Virus record (IMG/VR): IMGVR_UViG_2671180747_000001 | DNA length: 18,738 nt | Strand: one strand, 5' to 3' | Origin: a virus | Taxonomy: Duplodnaviria > Heunggongvirae > Uroviricota > Caudoviricetes | Notes under the pieces: generated by a model | Seen by the model: only the letters and a program-made list of their open reading frames with translations | The model's database searches: none | What the model was told of the DNA's origin: nothing | Made by a program: the position numbers and the translations under genes | Shown here: positions 1-15,630 of the stretch, piece after piece | How the letters are laid out: every line of letters begins with the position of its first letter | Numbering within the stretch: position 1 is the first letter of the stretch

Positions 1-2551
1 GCATTTCCGCCATCTCGTCCTTCAGCTGACTGTTGTCAATCTCTGCCCACAGCGCCTCTGCCAGATGCGTTTTTCCTATCTTTTCCCGGAAAAGTTCCAG
101 ATAGCCCGCAGCATCATTGCTCGCCCGTCCACTGGCTTCAACAAACGCGGATTTACCCACCAGATTGACGCTGCGCACGTAAAACCAGAAAACTTTCCCG
201 GGTTTAATCTGGCTGCCGGAGACGCTCCACTGGCTGCCTGTCCCCAGATAACGGGCAGAGGTTTCCACCTGTGCGGCGTCTGCAATTTTTGCCTCCGAAA
301 ACCAGAACTCAAACTGCACCGTCGGGTCATAAATGGTCAGTTTCGGGACTGCCGTTATCTGAAAATACCCCGGCGTCAGTTCAACACCGGCAGGCGCTGC
401 CGGTGCGTTAATCCGGAACGTGGTGGTGGCGGGTTCGCCCTGCTGGCCATAGCTGTTAATCGCCCTGACCGTCAGGGTGTATTCCCCGGGAGGCAGGCCA
501 CTGAAACGGTGCTCCGTATCGGCAGTGATGGCGGTGGTCAGCAGGCGGCTGTTCTCACCGCTTCCACTGGTCAGGCGCAGACTGAAGCGCACGCCCTTCA
601 CCACCCTCGGCGTGTCCCATTTCGCCAGCGCCAGATACTGGCTGTCAGCTGCGCTCACCTCCACCGTGAGGTGCTGTACTGCCGGTGGGATAACGCTGTT
701 CAGGGTGCCTGACTGCGGCTCAAAGCGGGCTCCGTTATCCACAATGGCTTCTTTTTCCGGTACGTGCTGCACTGCCGTGATGGCAAAGGTGCCGTCCGTG
801 TTTTCCCGGATGGAGACACAGCGGAACAGGCGACGGCGCAGTGACGGCAGGGAGAGTCCCCACACCCCGTATGTCTCCACACCATCAGGCAGGGTACTGA
901 CCTGTATCCGGTCCGGCGCGGGGTGTGCGGTGATGTCCACACTCACCGGCTTACCGCTGCCGTTAATCAGGTTCACCGTCGATGCACCTGTCCCCGGAAG
1001 TGTCACTTCACGGTCCAGCGTCAGGGTGCGGGTGGCAGCATCGATGGACAGGACACGTCCGCCGGTCAGGGTCCCGGCATAGTCGTTATCACAGATTTCA
1101 ATGATGTCACCGGGTGTGTGCCGCAGCCCCTGAGACCCGAGTGTGAAATCCACCGTCTGCGTTTCCAGCAGTTCGGTCTTTATCACCCACAGCCCGGCAC
1201 GGTGGGCCTGACCGCGGCTGGTACAGCCGAACGCGTCCATCTTCAGCAGGTTGCGTCCGTAGCGCAGTATGGCTTCCGGGTCTTCCACCAGTTCCGTGGA
1301 GGTCTGCCAGCCGTTCTGCGGGTCGGTGTAATTCACCTCCACCGCCGTGTGCCGGTCCTTCAGGGCACTGAAGCTGTAGCGGAACCCCACGCCGTTATCA
1401 TCCACCACCACATCGCTGTTGGTGTACGGCCACACCACATCCGACGGACGGTCCTGAACAAACGTCAGCGTCTGGCCGTTCCATACCGGCATACAGCGCA
1501 TCGCCGAGCAGAAATCACTGAGCACGTCCCATGCCTTACGCTGTTGTGCCAGGTACGCATTGAAGGTCATCCGCGGCTCTGTGCCCCCGAAACCATCCGG
1601 GACCGTCTGGTCGCAGTACTGCCCGATGGCATACAGCGCCCACTTGTCCACATCCGCCGCCCCCAGGCGTTTTCCCATCCCGTAGCGCGGGTGAGTCAGC
1701 ATGTCCCACAGGCACCAGGCCGGGTTGTTGCTGTATGCCGGTTTCAGACTGCCGTCCCAGATACCACTGTACGTGCGTTTTTCCGGGTCATAGTTTGACG
1801 GCACCTGGATGATGCGACCGCGGATATGGTAGTTCACCGTCATCTGCTGGCCGCCGAACTGCTCCGCATCCACCTGCAGCCCCACAATGGCCGTGTTCGG
1901 GTAGCACTGTTTCACATCGATGATTTCGGTGTATGACGACCAGAGCGTCTTATTCTGCAGCTGGTCCGTGGTGCTGTCCGCCGTCTCCCTGACCATCCGG
2001 ATGTTAAAGGGCCGGGGCGGCAGATTATCCAGAATCACCGACGTCAGGTACTGCGAGGTAGTCTTGCCGTTAATGGTGATATCCTTCTCCGTCACCCAGT
2101 TACCGTTACGCTCAAGCTGAATCAGCAGGCGGACAGAAGAGGGGTTACGGTCACCCTTTGAGGTGGTCTCCACCAGTGACTGCACCCCGAAGGTGACCCG
2201 CAGACGGTCAATGTTCGCTGACGTGATGGTGCGCGTCACCGGCTTTGCCTTCGTCACCTCCACGCCCAGTGCGGTTTCCGCCCCGGAGGACTCAAAGCCT
2301 TCCGGCGGTGTCTGCTCCTGCTCCCCGGCACGCCAGACGGCGGTCACACCGTGTATCACGGGATTACCGTCCGTGTCCGTCAGCGGGGTTTTGTTCACCA
2401 GAATACTCTGCAGTCCCTTCACCGGGCCTTCCACCGGTCCCTCACCGATGGCATCAATCACGCTCATCATCTGCGTGGATTTGAGATTATCCTTCGCCTC
2501 ACGCGGTGTGTGCGCCTTGCCGCCGCCTTTGCCCACGGAATCCCCCTTCAT
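1..2551 (-). CDS. J: Central tail fibre / host-specificity protein (lambda J-like), N-terminal ~850 codons; the 3' end lies beyond the window start
   Basis: ATG at 2551 (plus-strand 'cat' 2549-2551). Manual translation gives [47 protein letters not shown]..., which matches my recollection of the lambda J N-terminus and stays J-like to position 1. Frame checked at 2463, 940 and the window start. Absent from the ORF track, presumably because there is no stop inside the window. Confidence 0.85.
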
Positions 2552-2575
2552 CGTCCGCTGCCGGACACTGTTGAT

Positions 2576-2609
2576 GTATAAAAACAACAGGCACCCCGGA
2601 GAGTGCCTG
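2576..2609 (-). terminator. Putative intrinsic terminator/attenuator after the small ORF: 7-bp stem (2588-2594 / 2603-2609), 8-nt loop, then UUGUUUUUAU on the minus-strand RNA
   Basis: Inverted repeat caggcac...gtgcctg followed on the minus strand by a U-rich tract (plus-strand gtataaaaacaa at 2576-2587). Read by eye, no folding energy computed. Confidence 0.35.
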
Positions 2610-2611
2610 CA

Positions 2612-2707
2612 TCATGACGGAATAAAAATTCTGAATATCTTCACATTTTCACAAACTGACTGTGGCGCTGATAATTTCGCTGCGTTAGTGTTTTTTTGCC
2701 GTGACAT
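2612..2707 (-). CDS. Hypothetical small protein (31 aa, MSRQKNTNAAKLSAPQSVCENVKIFRIFIPS) in an AT-rich insert between I and J; possible moron
   Basis: ATG at 2707, stop TGA at 2612-2614. Consensus Shine-Dalgarno AAGGAG (plus-strand 'ctcctt' 2717-2722) with a 9-nt spacer. Sits in a ~240 bp AT-rich gap. No homology recognised; below the ORF-track size cut-off. Confidence 0.3.
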   Translation of the reverse strand: MSRQKNTNAAKLSAPQSVCENVKIFRIFIPS

Positions 2708-2749
2708 AAAAAACAACTCCTTAACACTAATCTTCATTTGTCTGAATCT

Positions 2750-2791
2750 CCCGCAGCTCCGCGATCACTGCGGGATTTTTTTATTCTTTTT
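2750..2791 (+). terminator. Putative rho-independent terminator for plus-strand (antisense) transcription: stem cccgcag (2750-2756) / ctgcggg (2768-2774), then atttttttattcttttt
   Basis: GC stem followed by a long T tract on the plus strand, directly abutting the stop codon of I (2790-2792). Read by eye. Confidence 0.4.
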
Positions 2792-3470
2792 ACCCCTGCC
2801 GTCCGATAACCACCACTTTCCCGTCACCGCCTTCATCACGGGTGCTGATGTCCTGGGATATCCGTCGTGAACCAACCAGCATTTCACCGTAAGGCACCGG
2901 CATCGGGTTACCCTGGGCAATCATGTTATCCAGCGAGGAAAAGTACGTGTTCTGTCTGCCGTTATCCGTTGCGCGGTAATCCGGTGTTTTTGCCTTCGGG
3001 GCCAGCATCTGGGCCACACCGCCCAGAATCATGCTGGCACCCAGTGAAAACAGCATCGTGGTGGCAGAAAAACCACCGGCTGCCAGGGCTGAACCCCATA
3101 ACGCCATCGTGGCTCCGGCCGTGAAGAACGACCCCACGATGGCCGCCGCCCCCAGCACAATCTGCAGTCCGCCCTTTCCGGCACCGGCCAGTCGCGGCAC
3201 AATGTGGATGACCGTTCCCTCACCCAGCTGTTCGTGAAGGCGGGCATACACCGCCTCCGGTGCCGTGTCCTCACCGGCAATACGTATCTGGTACCAGCCT
3301 TCGTTCATCTGACGGCGAAAGCCCGGCACCTGCATCGACAGTGCGCGGATGGCTTCCGCTGCCGTGTTCACATACAGGCTGAGGCGGCGGCCAAATCGTT
3401 GTAAATCCCCGTGAAGGCAGATGCGTGCCAGTGGCGGTGACGCCAGACTGAATGCGTTCGTCGTTGCCAT
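2790..3470 (-). CDS. I: Tail tip assembly protein (lambda I-like)
   Basis: 226-aa ORF. N-terminus MATTNAFSLASPPLARICLHGDLQRFGRRL... resembles lambda gpI (MAATHTLPLASPGMARICLYGDLQRFGRR... from memory). Lies between K and J as in lambda. Confidence 0.9.
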   Translation of the reverse strand: MATTNAFSLASPPLARICLHGDLQRFGRRLSLYVNTAAEAIRALSMQVPGFRRQMNEGWYQIRIAGEDTAPEAVYARLHEQLGEGTVIHIVPRLAGAGKGGLQIVLGAAAIVGSFFTAGATMALWGSALAAGGFSATTMLFSLGASMILGGVAQMLAPKAKTPDYRATDNGRQNTYFSSLDNMIAQGNPMPVPYGEMLVGSRRISQDISTRDEGGDGKVVVIGRQG

Positions 3471-4111
3471 TTTTCGGAATACCTCTCCCGTTTACTCAGT
3501 TGTTCAGGCAGATGGTGAAGCAGTTCACCGTTGCCGCAGTAAATGGCGGCATGGTTGGCCACCGATGCGCCAAAGCAGCACAGCAGAATATCGCCCGCCT
3601 GTGCAGAGGACAGGGGCACCCGGTAAAAGCCCGTGGCCTCCATATTGTCCAGGTACAGGTTCTGGCCGTTGCGCCACCACTCATCCTCGCGGTGAAAATC
3701 CGGCATTTCAGTCCCCGCCAGATGGTATGCATCCCGGAACAGCGTGTAACAGTCCGTCACCCCGTGCGCAAAGCGCCGTCCGGTCAGGTGCGGAACGCAG
3801 CGGAATTTGTGAATGTCACCCCGGCAGACCAGCCACCAGGGCAGGGCACTTTTTATCTGCAGCCGCCGGTCAGCCTCGCTCAGCCAGGGCAGCCCACCGG
3901 GATGACTGTGGACCAGTGCCACAATCTCCCCCTGCATCTCTGCCCGCAGCCAGTCTTCCGGTGCGATACGAAAATACGCCTCCGGCTCTGCGGAAATATT
4001 CACACAAGGGATATACCGCTCCCCCTCCGGCGTGCTTATCACGAAGCCGCACGACTCCGCAGGCGCACACCGCCGGGCATGTGCCAGAATCGCTGATTCA
4101 GTCTGTGTCAT
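3368..4111 (-). CDS. K: Tail tip assembly protein (lambda K-like), with JAB/MPN metalloprotease and NlpC/P60 cysteine-peptidase motifs
   Basis: Start refined to the ATG at 4111 (MTQTESAILAHARRCAPAESCGF...), 10 nt after L; the ORF-track start at 4372 would overlap L. JAMM motif HSHPGGLPWLSEAD and NlpC/P60-type DCYTL...H are visible. 3' end overlaps I by ~100 nt, as K/I do in lambda. Confidence 0.85.
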   Translation of the reverse strand: MTQTESAILAHARRCAPAESCGFVISTPEGERYIPCVNISAEPEAYFRIAPEDWLRAEMQGEIVALVHSHPGGLPWLSEADRRLQIKSALPWWLVCRGDIHKFRCVPHLTGRRFAHGVTDCYTLFRDAYHLAGTEMPDFHREDEWWRNGQNLYLDNMEATGFYRVPLSSAQAGDILLCCFGASVANHAAIYCGNGELLHHLPEQLSKRERYSEKWQRRTHSVWRHRHWHASAFTGIYNDLAAASACM

Positions 4112-5149: not shown

Positions 5150-7725
5150 CGCCCGCTCCCTGATAACATACCGCCATCACGCAACTGCAGCCGGAGCTCA
5201 TCCTGCGCCCCCTTGCGGGCCATGTCATACACCGCCTTCATCAGCTGCGGCCCCGCCTGTCCGTTGATACCGTCGTTCTGAATCACCACGTGATTGTTCT
5301 GATTAAAATTAATACCTTCCGCCCGCCGCATCTGCGCCGGACTTCCGGCACCACCCACATAACCCCCTTCCGCATAGCCGCGCATCAGACGGTAAAGATT
5401 CCCCACGCCTATCCGGCTGGTTGCCTCCTTCGTGAAGACAAACTCCCCGCGGTGAACTATCCCCGCAGGCTCATATTTGCCGCCCGTGCCCGTAAATCCG
5501 CCGGTCGCAAAATGAAAGTTCGCCGCCGCAGCCTGAATGGCCGTCCCCGTGGAGGCAGACGCCCCACCACCGAAAGCACCACCAATGGCGCTGCCGATAC
5601 GCCCGACAATGCCCACCATGGCCTGTTTAAGCAGGATTTCTGTCATCATGGACAGCACCGAACGGGTGAATCCCCGCCAGTCTGCCTCTGCACCGGTCAG
5701 CATCGCCGCCATATTCTGTGCAATACCGTCAAAGGTCTGCGTGGCCGCGCTTTTAACCTGCGAAAAACTGTCCGTCGCACTTTCCGCCCACTCGCCCCAG
5801 CCGGACTTCATCCCGGCCATCCAGCTTCCACGAAGCAGCTCCTCCGCAGACCAGGTGTTCTTCAGTGCCGATGTGGCCTTCGCCAGCGCAGCCGGATTAT
5901 CACCGTACACGTCACGAAGGCGCTGCTCTTCCGACTCCCGCTGCGCCTGACGGTCGGTGAGGCCGCGGGCTTTTGCGCTGATGGCGGCCTGCTTCGCGCT
6001 TTGCTGCTGTTCAAACCGCGCCGCCTGCTGTGCCAGCTCATTCAGCCGCTTCTGGTGTTCAACCTTGTCGCCCAGCTCAGCCAGCTGGCGTTTGTACTCC
6101 AGCGTCTCTTTCTCATGGGCCAGCAGGGATTTTTCCTGCTCAGATAACTGCCGTTTCGTGGCGGCCTCTTTCAGGACCACATACTGATTTTCCGCTTTCC
6201 ATAAATCCCGCCGCTGCTGGCTGATTTTTTCATTCGCACCGGCATGCTTTTCCAGCGTCCTGAGCTCGGTTTCAAGCGCCAGCAGCGCCGCATGCGCCCG
6301 GTCTTCCTGACGCTCACCGGCTGACACTTTAACACCTGACGACTTCGGCTTTTTCAGCGTCGATTCATAATCCTTTTTCGCCGCCGCCATCAGCGTGTTG
6401 TAATCCGCCTGCAGGATTTTCCCGTCCTTCAGGGCCTTGTTCAGTTCTTCCTGACGGGCGGTATATTTCTCCAGCGGCGACAGCAGGCGTTCATACGCTT
6501 TCTGCGCCTCTCCGGTATACTTCAGCTGTGACGCCTCACGCTCAGCCCTGTCCCTTGCCGCCAGTTCACCGGCTTTTTCCATATCCGACTGCAGCGTTGC
6601 CGCCGCCAGCCCCAGACGGGCATTTTCCCGGTCATCCCATGCACCCTGAAGGTTGGCCCGGAACGAGGCGGTTTTACCGCGGCGCTGGCTCCGGCTCTGG
6701 TACCACTGCCATTTTTTATCCGCCTCATCAAATGCCTTCTGCGCACTGGCGAGCATATCCGCTGAGGATTCCGGACGACCGATATCCAGAATGGCATCCC
6801 ACATCGATTTGAATGCCTTCCCTGTTTTATCCGCCCAGGTCTCCAGTGTTCCCATGTTTTCTTTCAGGCGACGGGTCTGCTCATCAAAGCCTTTCGTGGC
6901 GATATCGTTCGCCGCCTGTAAGGCCCCGGCCTCGTCTCCGGAACGCTGCAGTTGTGCAACATACGCAATCTGCTCTGCCGTCACGTTACGGAACTGGCGC
7001 GCCATCGCCATCAGTCCCGACGTCGGGTCAGTGGTCAGCTTCCCGAAGGCTTCAGCGACTTTATCCACCTCCACACCGGATGCAGACGCAAAACGCGCGA
7101 CACTCTGGTTAATGGCATCAAACTGTTCACCACCACGCACACCGGCATTCACCAGGGCTGCCAGTGACTCTCTCGCCTGGTTAAACGTCAGCCCTGCTGC
7201 CTGCCCGGCTCTTGAGAGCGTCAGCATACGATCGGCAGTCAGTCCGGCCTGATTGCCGGAAAGGACCAGCGTTTTATTAAATTCTGAAAGCGTGGAATCC
7301 CCCTGGTACCAGGCGTACGCCAGCGCACCTGTCGCCACCGCCAGCGAGGTGACCCCGACCATCGGCAGGGTGATCGCACCGGCAAGCCCCCTGAACATGG
7401 GGATCATCCCGCCGAAGGAGTCCTTCACCTGACCGCCCTGTTGCAGCAGGATGAGCCAGGGATTCTGACCACCGGCAAGCTGCGTGGCGATATCCGTAAA
7501 CTGTGCGGGCAGGGTACGCATGGCTGCTTTATACTGCCCGACGGAAATCCCGGCTTTTTGTGCGGCCAGCGCCTGACGGTTCAGACTCTGCTCAACGGCA
7601 CCGGCGGTTTTTCTGGCGTCGGTATCCAGTCCTGAAAAATGACGCCTTACCCGGCTCATCTGCTCATCGAAACGGACAGCATCCAGACTCAGGTCAATAA
7701 CAAGATCACCAACCGGCTGGGACAT
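5146..7725 (-). CDS. H: Tail tape measure protein (lambda H-like)
   Basis: 859-aa ORF. N-terminus MSQPVGDLVIDLSLDAVRFDEQMSRVRRHFSG... and C-terminal ...GIVHRGEFVFTKEATSRIGVGNLYRLMRGYA... match lambda gpH (853 aa). Long coiled-coil, Ala/Gln/Glu-rich centre. Confidence 0.92.
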   Translation of the reverse strand: MSQPVGDLVIDLSLDAVRFDEQMSRVRRHFSGLDTDARKTAGAVEQSLNRQALAAQKAGISVGQYKAAMRTLPAQFTDIATQLAGGQNPWLILLQQGGQVKDSFGGMIPMFRGLAGAITLPMVGVTSLAVATGALAYAWYQGDSTLSEFNKTLVLSGNQAGLTADRMLTLSRAGQAAGLTFNQARESLAALVNAGVRGGEQFDAINQSVARFASASGVEVDKVAEAFGKLTTDPTSGLMAMARQFRNVTAEQIAYVAQLQRSGDEAGALQAANDIATKGFDEQTRRLKENMGTLETWADKTGKAFKSMWDAILDIGRPESSADMLASAQKAFDEADKKWQWYQSRSQRRGKTASFRANLQGAWDDRENARLGLAAATLQSDMEKAGELAARDRAEREASQLKYTGEAQKAYERLLSPLEKYTARQEELNKALKDGKILQADYNTLMAAAKKDYESTLKKPKSSGVKVSAGERQEDRAHAALLALETELRTLEKHAGANEKISQQRRDLWKAENQYVVLKEAATKRQLSEQEKSLLAHEKETLEYKRQLAELGDKVEHQKRLNELAQQAARFEQQQSAKQAAISAKARGLTDRQAQRESEEQRLRDVYGDNPAALAKATSALKNTWSAEELLRGSWMAGMKSGWGEWAESATDSFSQVKSAATQTFDGIAQNMAAMLTGAEADWRGFTRSVLSMMTEILLKQAMVGIVGRIGSAIGGAFGGGASASTGTAIQAAAANFHFATGGFTGTGGKYEPAGIVHRGEFVFTKEATSRIGVGNLYRLMRGYAEGGYVGGAGSPAQMRRAEGINFNQNNHVVIQNDGINGQAGPQLMKAVYDMARKGAQDELRLQLRDGGMLSGSGR

Positions 7726-8577
7726 ATCTCACACCTCCGGAAATCCCCGCTGAAGCCATCATTAATGCAACATCATCCTCGCTGACATCCACCACATCTG
7801 CAGAAGGTGAAATATCGCCCCCTCCCTCCCCACCGAACCGGACGCCTCCGGCAAGTCCTGCCGCTTTCTGCATCAGCATGTCTTCCTCATCCGGCATCTC
7901 CGTCTGCGCTTCCTCTCGCCGGGGAGCCAGCAGACTGAAATCCGAGGGATGCATATCCGGATCGCAAAAAAACAGGCTGAGTACGGCGTACATCAGCCCG
8001 GAAAAATGCATATCCAGTTGGGTATCCTGAAAATAATGCGTGCGGTAAAAATGTCGCCAGTCGGCATATTCGGTGGATGTCATCCCGGCAAGCATGGCGC
8101 GCCAGTCAGGCCTCCCCATCTCACGCGCCAGTCTGAGGGCAAAATTCAGCTCGCCGTCGAAAACTTTCCCGCAGAAAAATCATCATCAGTAAGCGCGTTA
8201 TTTTTCGCCACTTCGGTGCTGTCAGTATCCGCATGAACAGCCCCGCTCATCCCGGACAGACGTAACACCACCTCTTCCGCCCGGGCAATGGCATCGGCAG
8301 GCCAGGTGGTGAGCACTTCCTGCTCTATCTTCATCACGGCCTCATTCATTGACGGTGACTGCGTTTTCTGTGGATGGTTATGCCACAGGGACATCGCCAC
8401 CAGAAACGCGCCGGTTCTGACAAGATCTTCCACACTCACCTGCAGGTTGCCGCTGGCTTCAGCCTCTTCTGCCCGCCGTTTCAGGAGGGCAAGATGCTCA
8501 ATACGCTGCAGCGCAGACAGCTCAGAAAGCATGACGGATACACCGTTATATTCAAATTGTTCTGTTTTCAGAAACAT
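7706..8577 (-). CDS. T: Tail assembly chaperone G-T fusion made by a programmed -1 ribosomal frameshift at the G GGA AAG heptamer (8164-8170)
   Basis: G frame has codon first bases at 0 mod 3 and the T frame at 1 mod 3, i.e. -1 on the minus strand. After the slip the T frame reads GKVFDGELNFALRLAREMGRPDWRAMLAG..., matching the lambda gpGT junction. The T frame has no plausible independent start with an RBS. Confidence 0.75.
8146..8577 (-). CDS. G: Tail assembly chaperone (lambda G-like)
   Basis: 143-aa ORF. MFLKTEQFEYNGVSVMLSELSALQRIEHLALLKRRAEEAE...AMSLWHNHPQKTQ matches lambda gpG. Confidence 0.9.
   Translation of the reverse strand: MFLKTEQFEYNGVSVMLSELSALQRIEHLALLKRRAEEAEASGNLQVSVEDLVRTGAFLVAMSLWHNHPQKTQSPSMNEAVMKIEQEVLTTWPADAIARAEEVVLRLSGMSGAVHADTDSTEVAKNNALTDDDFSAGKFSTAS
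8164..8170 (-). other. Slippery heptanucleotide G GGA AAG for the G-T -1 frameshift
   Basis: Plus-strand 'ctttccc' 8164-8170 is the reverse complement of GGGAAAG, in the zero frame of G, 16 nt upstream of the G stop codon. Same heptamer and position as in lambda. Confidence 0.75.
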
Positions 8578-14048: not shown

Positions 14049-15630
14049 GTGGTGTTGTCTCCTCTTCCGGCCTGCGACTCTCCGCTATCTGCTGCTGATA
14101 CGCCTGCGCTATCCACACCGGACGTGAGAGTCCGGCTTTTTCCCGCTCTGCAGATTCCCTGACCTGCTGGCGGAAAATGTCCTGATAATCCTCGCCCATC
14201 AGCGCCAGCTCTTTCTCATACGTGCTCAGTCCGGAATCAATACGCATCACCGATTCCTGAACCTCCTTGAGCCCGTCAATGGCCATTCTTCCGGCACCAA
14301 TCCACTCAGCCCGTGACCAGGCTGAACGCGCCTGATAAAAATCAAAACGTGCCCGTGGCGGACGAATAATCCCCCGAAGAAGTGCCTCTTCCAGCCAGCA
14401 GGAAAACATCTGCGTGGCCAGCCGGGCCGCAATAAATTTTCGCCGCCCCATAAAATAGCGCCACGACTCATTGGCGGAGGCGCGGGCACTTGAGTAACTG
14501 ACCTTCGAGTAATCACGGGACAACTGTTCGTAGGAAACGCCAAGACCGGCAGCGATATACCGCAGCAGCGCCTGTTCAAGCGCCGAAAATCCATTGTCTG
14601 AATCCTGCGCGGTCTGAAGTTTCAGATCATCACCAGGGAAAAGGTGCGGAATTTTGACACCGCCCAGCGTCACGCTATTCGTGTCATACCAGGTGGAGAA
14701 CTTATCCAGAATATTAATAAGCGGATTATCCTTCTGCCCCTGCGGCGCACCGGCGATATATTCAAAGGCCTTTTCGGTATCAAGTTCACTTTCAATCGTC
14801 GCTGCATACATGGCTTTAACAATGGCCGACTGAAGCTGTGTTGCCTGCAGGGAATCGAGCATCTTCAGCCGTTCCATGACGCTGTAAAACTGGTTGGCCC
14901 CACGGGTCTGCCCGTCCTCCACCGGCTCGAAAATATGCAGCATGGCCGGACGCCCGGTGGGAAGTTCACGCGGGATCCGTTCCCATCGTCCACTCCCGGA
15001 GCGAGGAAAATCATCCTCACAGATATGGTACGCAACGGCACGGCCATATCGATCAACCTCCACCCCGGCCCGCAGAAAACGGTTCCCGATACCGTGTCCT
15101 GGCGTGTCCACCCGTTTCGGACTCACGGCTTTAAAACGCGTACGAAACAGTTGCGTGCTCTCCGTATCCCAGACCGGCTGCACAAAGATTTCGCCGTTAA
15201 ACGCATGAACGCCCACACCTTCACGGATAAATTCCGTAAACGTGCGTTTCCCTTCCACGTCGATCTCACCAAACATCCCTTCTGCGTATTCTGACCAGGC
15301 CGCCTCCACCTCATCGACAAAACTTTTTGCCGCGGTCTCCCGCATCCCCAGCCAGCGCCAGTTCGGACGGTAGCTAATCAGAAACATATGCCCGACAATG
15401 TGATCCTTATGCAGGGCCACCGCATTGGCCGCTATTCCGTTATTGCGCACCAGATCATCTGCACGGGCATTCCCCAGACGCAACGCGGGCAGCAGGGCCG
15501 CATCGGCACTCTGCGAGGGTGGCAACCACTCTGCCATTTGCCCGCCAAATCCTGCACCGCCCCCGTTGTAGCTGAGGCTCTCCCGAAGCGGAACGCCGTT
15601 CACATCAATCAGGACAGGCTTTCGTTTCAT
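14038..15630 (-). CDS. B: Portal protein (lambda B-like)
   Basis: 530-aa ORF (lambda gpB is 533 aa). ...FEPVEDGQTRGANQFYSVMERLKMLDSLQATQLQSAIVKAMYAATIESELDT...YEQLSRDYSKVSYSSARASANESW... matches lambda gpB. Confidence 0.95.
   Translation of the reverse strand: MKRKPVLIDVNGVPLRESLSYNGGGAGFGGQMAEWLPPSQSADAALLPALRLGNARADDLVRNNGIAANAVALHKDHIVGHMFLISYRPNWRWLGMRETAAKSFVDEVEAAWSEYAEGMFGEIDVEGKRTFTEFIREGVGVHAFNGEIFVQPVWDTESTQLFRTRFKAVSPKRVDTPGHGIGNRFLRAGVEVDRYGRAVAYHICEDDFPRSGSGRWERIPRELPTGRPAMLHIFEPVEDGQTRGANQFYSVMERLKMLDSLQATQLQSAIVKAMYAATIESELDTEKAFEYIAGAPQGQKDNPLINILDKFSTWYDTNSVTLGGVKIPHLFPGDDLKLQTAQDSDNGFSALEQALLRYIAAGLGVSYEQLSRDYSKVSYSSARASANESWRYFMGRRKFIAARLATQMFSCWLEEALLRGIIRPPRARFDFYQARSAWSRAEWIGAGRMAIDGLKEVQESVMRIDSGLSTYEKELALMGEDYQDIFRQQVRESAEREKAGLSRPVWIAQAYQQQIAESRRPEEETTPRET

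Follow-up and report, generated by a model that had tools for sequence, protein, structure and literature searches.

The extra DNA between tail genes I and J of a lambdoid prophage very probably encodes an antisense-oriented small RNA of the PasB family

PasB, EcOnc22–24 and the I–J junction

PasB is one of five prophage small RNAs (sRNAs) identified by Hfq RNA interaction by ligation and sequencing (RIL-seq) in enteropathogenic Escherichia coli (EPEC) O127:H6 strain E2348/69 (Pearl Mizrahi et al. 2021, PMC8550237). It is listed there (Table S6) as E2348CN_0006, an 83-nt RNA of prophage PP6 on the minus strand of NC_011601 (1466343 to 1466261), and is placed between E2348C_1436 and E2348C_1437 in the arrangement '(> <) >'. 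EcOnc22, EcOnc23 and EcOnc24 are mutually homologous plus-strand peaks from Hfq crosslinking and analysis of cDNA (CRAC) in prophages Sp15 (the Shiga toxin (Stx) 1 phage), Sp14 and Sp11, respectively, of enterohaemorrhagic E. coli (EHEC) O157:H7 Sakai, and give on Northern blots a band of ~85 nt, described as 'destabilised' when hfq is deleted (Tree et al. 2014, PMC4104026, Table S2). The DNA analysed here, referred to as the window, is the whole 18,738-nucleotide stretch of IMG/VR record IMGVR_UViG_2671180747_000001, in which the spacer between tail genes I and J contains an insert that is very probably an independent, antisense-oriented sRNA transcription unit of the PasB family in a lambdoid prophage. 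The PasB-family gene is placed at about 2698..2782 on the plus strand, antisense to the late operon, by a probe match, by alignment to E2348/69 PasB and by synteny. As a variant of a widespread prophage sRNA that has already been published, the element is not itself new; the equivalence of PasB of EPEC with EcOnc22–24 of EHEC is added here, since neither Pearl Mizrahi et al. 2021 nor Zhu et al. 2026 equates the two.

The probe used to detect PasB on Northern blots, AATCCCGCAGTGATCGCGGAGCT, has a single exact match in the window, at 2755-2777 on the minus strand (0 of 200 shuffles matched), and the RNA that it detects must therefore be a plus-strand RNA. On the EPEC chromosome, E2348C_1436 and E2348C_1437 are plus-strand genes that correspond to I and J and lie 240 bp apart, PasB ends 6 nt past the I stop, and the I–J spacers of E2348/69 and of the window can be aligned over their full length. 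When the 83-nt E2348/69 PasB is set against window positions 2697-2782, the two sequences agree in 75 of 87 aligned columns and are almost identical across the 3' 50 nt. Membership of the PasB family was defined by Zhu et al. as homology over >75% of the 83-nt E2348/69 PasB, and the window copy aligns to that sequence over its full length. The copy is also found in the family position, within the I–J spacer of a lambdoid tail operon and directed opposite to I and J, and it ends in the expected terminator (stem at 2750-2774 followed by U7).

A similar picture was obtained for EHEC, with EcOnc22–24 falling within 240-bp I–J spacers on the current Sakai record, where I and J are encoded on the minus strand, and with the I–J spacers of Sp15, Sp14 and Sp11 all alignable to that of the window. 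Positions listed in Table S2 of Tree et al. 2014 do not coincide with those of the current Sakai RefSeq record; calibration on HnrS/EcOnc10 gave a shift of about +128 to +150 nt, which has to be applied whenever EcOnc sRNAs are placed on that record. After correction the EcOnc22–24 peaks lie inside the PasB-equivalent segment, ~30 nt from the I stop; unshifted, they are still within the spacers and on the antisense strand. A short antisense RNA from the plus strand had been called conceivable in the original prediction, and such an RNA is what the published Hfq-dependent PasB/EcOnc22–24 turns out to be, ending at the hairpin and T-tract beside the I stop.

The fold predicted for window PasB comprises a mostly unpaired, CU/A-rich body of ~50 nt, a stem of 7-8 bp, an 11-nt loop and a U7 tail, and a body of this kind followed by a terminator stem-loop and U-tail is, as modelled, typical of base-pairing sRNAs that depend on Hfq. 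The intrinsic terminator and Hfq-binding 3' module span 2750..2782 on the plus strand, the arms CCCGCAG and CUGCGGG (2750-2774) enclosing the 11-nt loop and the U7 run following at 2776-2782, the last U of which is the 3' end of PasB. Conservation was assessed on 65 unique variants out of 121 IMG/VR copies. The terminator loop is variable and conservation is low in the 5' 15 nt of PasB; of the unpaired stretches, ACUCC...U.AUCUU at 2716-2734 is conserved best, with AUCUU (2730-2734) invariant. This stretch overlaps a candidate seed at 2717..2736 on the plus strand, made up of CUCCUU (2717-2722) and UAAUCUUCA (2728-2736), which is unpaired in both the minimum free energy and the centroid folds. 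Zhu, Shabalina and Storz (2026, bioRxiv 10.64898/2026.05.13.724894) have likewise proposed a seed for PasB immediately upstream of the terminator.

Expression of the homologous RNA is documented for E2348/69, in which PasB was detected on Northern blots at ~83 nt and depends on Hfq for its stability (PMC8550237); the log2 fold change of pasB on hfq deletion (DESeq2) is -6.8 and -2.4 in two conditions. The DESeq2 baseMean values in the same strain are 482 and 1082 for pasB, whereas I and J have 4.8 and 15, respectively, and levels so far above those of its neighbours indicate that PasB is transcribed independently, at a time when the late operon is silent. In addition, Hfq-dependent RIL-seq chimeras of E2348/69 PasB with ~37 other RNAs have been described (PMC8550237).

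The spacer family was found in 147 phage records, mostly Stx1a-, Stx2a- and Stx2c-converting phages. It also occurs in 1723 of the 5426 complete E. coli genomes, in each case between genes annotated as 'tail assembly protein' and 'gpJ'. At the spacer itself the annotation is either empty or reads 'hypothetical protein', with a position and frame that differ between records. A search for the terminator motif in one genome per species returned 2 matches, both in lambdoid I–J DNA, and is uninformative on distribution. The matches lie on two short contigs labelled as other bacteria, NZ_FWPT01000051.1 (Parendozoicomonas haliclonae) and NZ_JBHTEB010000006.1 (Streptomyces flavalbus), which are 85-96% identical to I–PasB–J and most likely represent assembly contamination.

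Several points weigh against the assignment or limit its reach. The window variant is rare, with identity of at least 99% over 2500-2850 in 6 of 20,395 E. coli records, and expression is known from homologues only. Rfam 15 is without a PasB family and hence offers no curated model for scoring. The terminator arms served as the search pattern by which the conservation sample was collected, so their invariance gives no covariation support. The 5' end of PasB was inferred from the RNA-seq coverage of another strain, not from mapped primary 5' ends. Lastly, a 2021 review gives the targets of EcOnc22–24 as 'unknown', and neither PasB nor EcOnc22–24 has a validated target.

Borders of the insert and the open reading frame on its minus strand

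Both genes flanking the spacer are encoded on the minus strand. Tail assembly gene I occupies 2790..3470 (Pfam Lambda_tail_I, E = 2e-16) and ends with a TAA stop at 2792-2790. The longest open reading frame (ORF) for I runs from 3470 and overlaps the end of K by ~100 nt; on an identical record, the Prokaryotic Genome Annotation Pipeline (PGAP) starts I at 3371, giving a protein of 193 aa. The 5' part of gene J (tip attachment/host specificity; Pfam GpJ domains) takes up 1..2536 and continues past the left end of the window, the portion within the window corresponding to the N-terminal 845 residues by Pfam. The start of J had been put at 2551 in the original prediction; GTG 2536 is preferred here as the most likely start, as it is the one chosen by PGAP on a 100% identical record and aligns with the ATG of lambda J, and with this start the I–J spacer becomes 253 bp. 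In lambda (J02459), I ends at 15444 and J starts at 15505, leaving a spacer of 60 bp (15445-15504) that agrees with the length given in the original prediction. The contrast in composition described there was likewise borne out, GC being 0.429 in the spacer (2552-2789) against 0.604 in I and 0.601 in J. The DNA that is extra with respect to lambda is the I-proximal ~165 bp (2627-2789), with a GC of 0.387 against 0.60 in the flanking genes.

The homology common to all PasB-bearing junctions stops at a mosaic breakpoint, which was located by haplotype alignment at 2619..2627 and has no strand. BLAST matches in many E. coli genomes stop at window positions 2619-2622, and NZ_JBHTEB010000006.1 breaks at 2619. 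Beyond the breakpoint at least three unrelated J-proximal segments can be seen among different prophages, and spacer lengths are accordingly 235-259 or 338-344 bp. The breakpoint is situated immediately upstream of the CRP-like box discussed below. One of the J-proximal segments, that of the window, contains a terminator-like hairpin on the sense strand of the late operon at 2577..2610 (minus), just upstream of J, which consists of a 10-bp stem (2610-2587) followed by UGUUUUUAUA / UUGUUUUUAUA; the hairpin has an energy of -18.6 kcal/mol (z = -3.8). Of 54 junctions lying beside I proteins at least 97% identical to that of the window, all carry the PasB terminator together with the upstream box and 20 carry the minus-strand terminator, which implies that the latter travels with the type of J and not with PasB. 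The lambda I–J spacer also has a sense-strand GC hairpin with a U-tract (ACCGCCUGCGGGCGGUUUUGUCAUUU), the fold of that spacer having an energy of -21 kcal/mol (z = -2.8). On this sequence comparison the terminator-like hairpin ahead of J looks like an older feature of the junction. Both hairpins with T- or U-tracts that had been noticed originally were recovered by terminator scan and folding. The one lying 3' of the ORF, which had been counted as part of the inserted cassette, does exist but belongs to the J-proximal mosaic segment rather than to the PasB unit.

Given this breakpoint, with different J-proximal segments beyond it, the spacer might be regarded as a mere recombination scar, a functionless mosaic joint between the I and J modules. 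Such a reading is scarcely credible, as conservation extends over the I-proximal 165 bp as one unit, with a promoter- and terminator-like pattern of invariant positions, and as the homologous RNA is expressed and bound by Hfq in two pathotypes.

The ORF on the minus strand lies at 2612..2737 and has 31 codons when counted from ATG 2707, an in-frame 5' extension to ATG 2737 lengthening it to 41 codons; the stop is TGA 2612, and AAGGAG is present at 2722-2717, 9 nt ahead of ATG 2707. The spacer is common among lambdoid phages and prophages, where its occurrence had been suggested as a check on the insert, but the ORF in it is not conserved. An ORF of at least 31 codons with the same stop is present in 44 of 121 copies (26 of the 65 unique variants), the commonest variant of the ORF has a stop after 22 codons, and 13 of the 121 copies lack any ATG-initiated ORF of at least 15 codons. 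Indels in a homopolymer T-run and A-run shift the frame among related copies, and the C-terminal part is gone from 45 of 121 copies, in which it is replaced by another J-proximal segment. Minor-allele frequencies at the three codon positions of the ORF are 0.081, 0.142 and 0.138, without a third-position excess, whereas the control genes show the excess clearly, at 2.6-fold for I (0.065, 0.065 and 0.17) and 5.7-fold for J (0.022, 0.022 and 0.126). The peptide has no match in Pfam (E <= 0.01) or PHROG (E <= 1), the promoter scan found no minus-strand promoter for the ORF, and PGAP annotates nothing in the I–J spacer of the 100% identical record.

These results bear directly on the view that the insert is a protein-coding moron, in which the 31- or 41-codon peptide would be made from the late-operon strand using AAGGAG as ribosome-binding site and the hairpin at 2587-2610 as terminator. 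The ORF, the AAGGAG motif and the downstream terminator do all exist, a frame of 39-41 codons from the upstream ATG is kept in 41 of 121 copies, including the Sp15 type with its 6-nt in-frame deletion, and a hypothetical protein is annotated here in two phage records. The two annotated proteins, however, differ in frame and position, the frame is cut short in the commonest variant, and neither the substitution pattern nor the family, promoter and PGAP searches described above favour a gene. Furthermore, the sense strand of the spacer shows no Hfq chimeras and no notable expression in EPEC. A coding moron is thus considered very unlikely, and the ORF is, judging from its pattern of variation, almost certainly not a gene and would be a by-product of the strand complementary to PasB. 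The AAGGAG that had been read as a Shine-Dalgarno sequence in the original prediction is the complement of the conserved CUCCUU in the single-stranded body of PasB. Of the small gene proposed there, the ORF and its AAGGAG motif stand as sequence, and the protein-coding interpretation fails on frame, substitutions and family.

In the sense used for HK97 and HK022, for which the term is said to have been defined by Juhala et al. in 2000, a moron is extra DNA between genes that are neighbours in a relative, of deviant composition, with its own promoter and terminator and with expression from the repressed prophage. The PasB unit is extra DNA (253 bp against 60 bp in lambda) of deviant composition (GC 0.387 against 0.60), has a clear terminator and two conserved promoter candidates, and is independently expressed in the form of its E2348/69 homologue. 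The description of the insert as a moron-like cassette can accordingly be retained for extra, AT-rich, self-contained DNA relative to lambda, but not for a small-protein cargo.

Promoter candidates and a possible link to cAMP–CRP

Two candidate promoters for PasB were found on the plus strand. The first has a candidate -10 element, TAGTGT, at 2686..2691, in which variation is confined to the three inner bases (TAGTGT, TACTTT, TACCGT, TAATGT and TACAGT), T-12, A-11 and T-7 being invariant, and would start transcription at G2698 or C2699. This start is 1 nt off the 5' end seen by RNA-seq, which is equivalent to 2697, and fits the bands of 83-85 nt. The second, TTCACA-16-GATAAT at 2648..2675, with TTCACA at 2648-2653 and GATAAT at 2670-2675, had been pointed out in the original prediction as a weak sigma-70-like match and was found again by promoter scan, where it scores 10/12 against the consensus; it would start at ~2682 and give an RNA of ~100 nt. 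Promoter-like sites in the region 2000-3500 number 2 against 0.4 expected. The ATAAT of GATAAT is nearly invariant, and the -35 element TTCACA is not conserved in Sp15-type variants. The 5' end of PasB is most likely at ~2698, or as far upstream as ~2682 if the GATAAT promoter is used.

A separate candidate regulatory element, resembling the binding site of the cyclic AMP (cAMP) receptor protein CRP, was found by pattern search, conservation and spacing at 2630..2645 on the plus strand. The box reads TCTGA-ATATCT-TCACA (on the minus strand, AAATGTGA-AGATAT-TCAGAATT), that is, TCTGA-N6-TCACA, which agrees with TGTGA-N6-TCACA at 9 of 10 core positions and is flanked by AAA and TT. A core match of 9/10 is comparable to that of the lac CRP site. 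Matches to TGTGA-N6-TCACA with at most one mismatch number 2 in the 18.7 kb, against 0.46 expected, and ~0.006 would be expected per 240 bp. The second of them, TGGGACATATCTCACA at 7718-7733 on the plus strand, lies at the junction of tail genes T and H and is probably due to chance. Both half-sites of the box at PasB are invariant and two central spacer bases are variable, and the distance between the box and the promoter elements downstream of it is constant in 117 of 121 copies. If transcription starts at 2698 or 2699, the centre of the box (2637.5) falls at -60.5 or -61.5, a class I position. On these sequence features the PasB promoter can tentatively be put forward as a class I cAMP–CRP-dependent promoter, with a box near -61, a weak -35 and the -10 element TAGTGT, although this is somewhat doubtful. 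If it holds, PasB would be made under glucose scarcity or in stationary phase.

Published expression data allow the direction of such control to be compared with that of other sRNAs. CyaR is activated by CRP, and Spf is repressed by it. In E2348/69, PasB is higher in overnight static lysogeny broth (LB) than in exponential DMEM (PMC8550237), and chimera counts under activating and non-activating conditions are 258 and 1820 for PasB, 4299 and 7362 for CyaR, and 7925 and 387 for Spf. PasB thus shifts in the same way as CyaR and opposite to Spf, a direction consistent with control by CRP. Neither Pearl Mizrahi et al. 2021 nor Zhu et al. 2026 mentions a PasB promoter, CRP or the antisense relation of PasB to the late operon, and the CRP-like box at PasB is possibly a new observation.

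The assignment of a class I promoter has to be set against three further points. The second promoter candidate is the better sigma-70 match and would start ~15 nt further upstream; a start at ~2682 would put the CRP-like box at -44.5, which is neither a class I nor a class II position; and control by stationary phase or low oxygen explains the higher PasB level in overnight LB equally well. A constitutive sigma-70 promoter, TTCACA-16-GATAAT, may drive a primary RNA of ~100 nt, from which processing, for instance through RNase E cleavage at the U-run, would yield the ~85-nt species, the CRP-like box then being irrelevant or a site for another ligand. This alternative is possible rather than probable. 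It gains from the 10/12 match, from the near invariance of ATAAT (TATAAT in E2348/69) and from the position of the mapped 5' end directly after a U7 run, which is in our view a plausible RNase E site. On the other hand, its -35 element is not conserved, reading TTCCGG or TTCTGC in the Sp15 type, and both Northern estimates are ~83-85 nt, a 100-nt species not having been reported. The competing TAnnnT is conserved in the manner of a working -10 element and predicts the 5' end to within 1 nt, and the CRP-like box is the most conserved block of the upstream region. A 5' stem that would have favoured the ~100-nt transcript was also considered, formed by pairing of GUUAGUGUU with AACACUAAU in the window, and was discarded, as the Sp15-type changes appear non-compensatory by eye.

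Possible modes of action and comparison with known systems

With the preferred start, transcription of the plus strand would begin inside the spacer, most likely at ~2698, and run toward gene I, and would stop at the hairpin and U7 run abutting the I stop to give an RNA of ~85 nt. PasB would act in trans, and probably mask ribosome-binding sites, by means of its single-stranded CUCCUU...UAAUCUUCA stretch. We infer repression in trans through the CUCCUU / AAUCUUCA stretch from these features.

PasB could instead act mainly in cis, by pairing with the I–J late mRNA or through collision of convergent transcription upon induction, so that it would tune J expression or mRNA processing, or the late mRNA would neutralise PasB. 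PasB has the geometry of a cis-antisense RNA lying within an operon, with perfect complementarity to the I–J junction, and shows tight linkage to this position and to a single I allele (54 of 54 junctions); conserved synteny has also been reported by Zhu et al. 2026 (bioRxiv 10.64898/2026.05.13.724894). A mainly cis-acting PasB is nevertheless judged unlikely, given that PasB is abundant in lysogens, in which the late genes are silent, and that it has ~37 partners in trans in Hfq chimeras, with no I or J partner among the RIL-seq table rows searched. Pairing of the PasB body with the translation-initiation region of J, also considered as an interaction in trans, was rejected on duplex energy, 30 of 500 shuffles being as good. 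Cis and trans roles of PasB are not mutually exclusive.

Taking the inferred action in trans and the candidate promoter together, a tentative proposal can be made in which PasB would be a class I cAMP–CRP-activated prophage sRNA that is kept antisense within its own tail operon. It might in this way couple the carbon status of the host to a trans regulon in the lysogen, and upon induction read-through late mRNA and PasB might neutralise each other. If true, a single 165-bp unit would both regulate the host and work as a switch linked to lytic growth.

To specialists in prophage sRNAs these findings will come as no surprise. What the present analysis adds is modest, namely the link between PasB and EcOnc22–24, the finding that the ORF is non-coding, the borders of the unit with respect to lambda, and the CRP hypothesis. 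About one in three complete E. coli genomes carry the PasB unit, as do many Stx phages, and its spacer is routinely left blank or given a spurious 'hypothetical protein', a miscall that recognition of an sRNA gene on the opposite strand prevents. The identity of PasB with EcOnc22–24, the antisense insert relative to lambda and the CRP-like box at a class I distance should together ease the study of this orphan sRNA. The box in particular provides a concrete cAMP–CRP hypothesis for an orphan sRNA of EPEC, EHEC and extraintestinal pathogenic E. coli (ExPEC) prophages.

Two other identities were examined and rejected. No Rfam family matched anywhere in the window at its gathering score, and at E <= 10 in the region 2300-3000 the best match was far below threshold. 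AgvB (anti-GcvB) had been suggested by a weak plus-strand match to the Rfam GcvB model, of 11.7 bits against a threshold of 42, and was dismissed on its location at the PR' moron site. HnrS (EcOnc10-12) was dismissed on its Sakai coordinates, which lie between the Rz and DNase/terminase genes and not between I and J. The HnrS gene (66 nt, Sakai Sp12, NC_002695.2 ~2234335-2234436) can itself be located from sequence alone, with a TTGAAA-18-AAAAAT promoter followed by a 9-bp terminator and T7.

Among the known systems, the window element is close to E2348/69 PasB, with which it shares the I–J spacer locus, the antisense orientation, the terminator with U7, the upstream promoter region and the CRP-like box; it differs from it in the first ~15 nt and in a 3-nt insertion (AAU) ahead of the terminator. 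EcOnc22–24 are likewise Hfq-crosslinked peaks in homologous I–J spacers, on the strand opposite to I and J and with a band of ~85 nt. Their spacers are ~83% identical to that of the window overall, and differ from it in having CUCCAU instead of CUCCUU, a 6-nt deletion near the 5' end and a different terminator loop. The I–J region of lambda has the same gene junction, with a sense-strand GC hairpin and U-tract just upstream of J, but its spacer measures 60 bp rather than 253 bp, is without the PasB unit, and has a hairpin unrelated in sequence to that of the window. AgvB/AsxR, PasA, PasC, PasD and HnrS are, like PasB, short RNAs that depend on Hfq, possess a promoter and an intrinsic terminator of their own, and are expressed in lysogens from prophage late regions. 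Their sequences are unrelated to that of PasB and their positions are different, AgvB/AsxR and PasA, PasC and PasD lying in the vicinity of PR' and of the lysis genes, and HnrS lying between Rz and terminase. The classical morons of HK97 and HK022 share with the PasB unit the nature of extra DNA, a deviant composition, and a promoter (a candidate one in the case of PasB) and terminator, but whereas they carry a protein gene, the PasB unit carries a non-coding RNA that points against the late operon.

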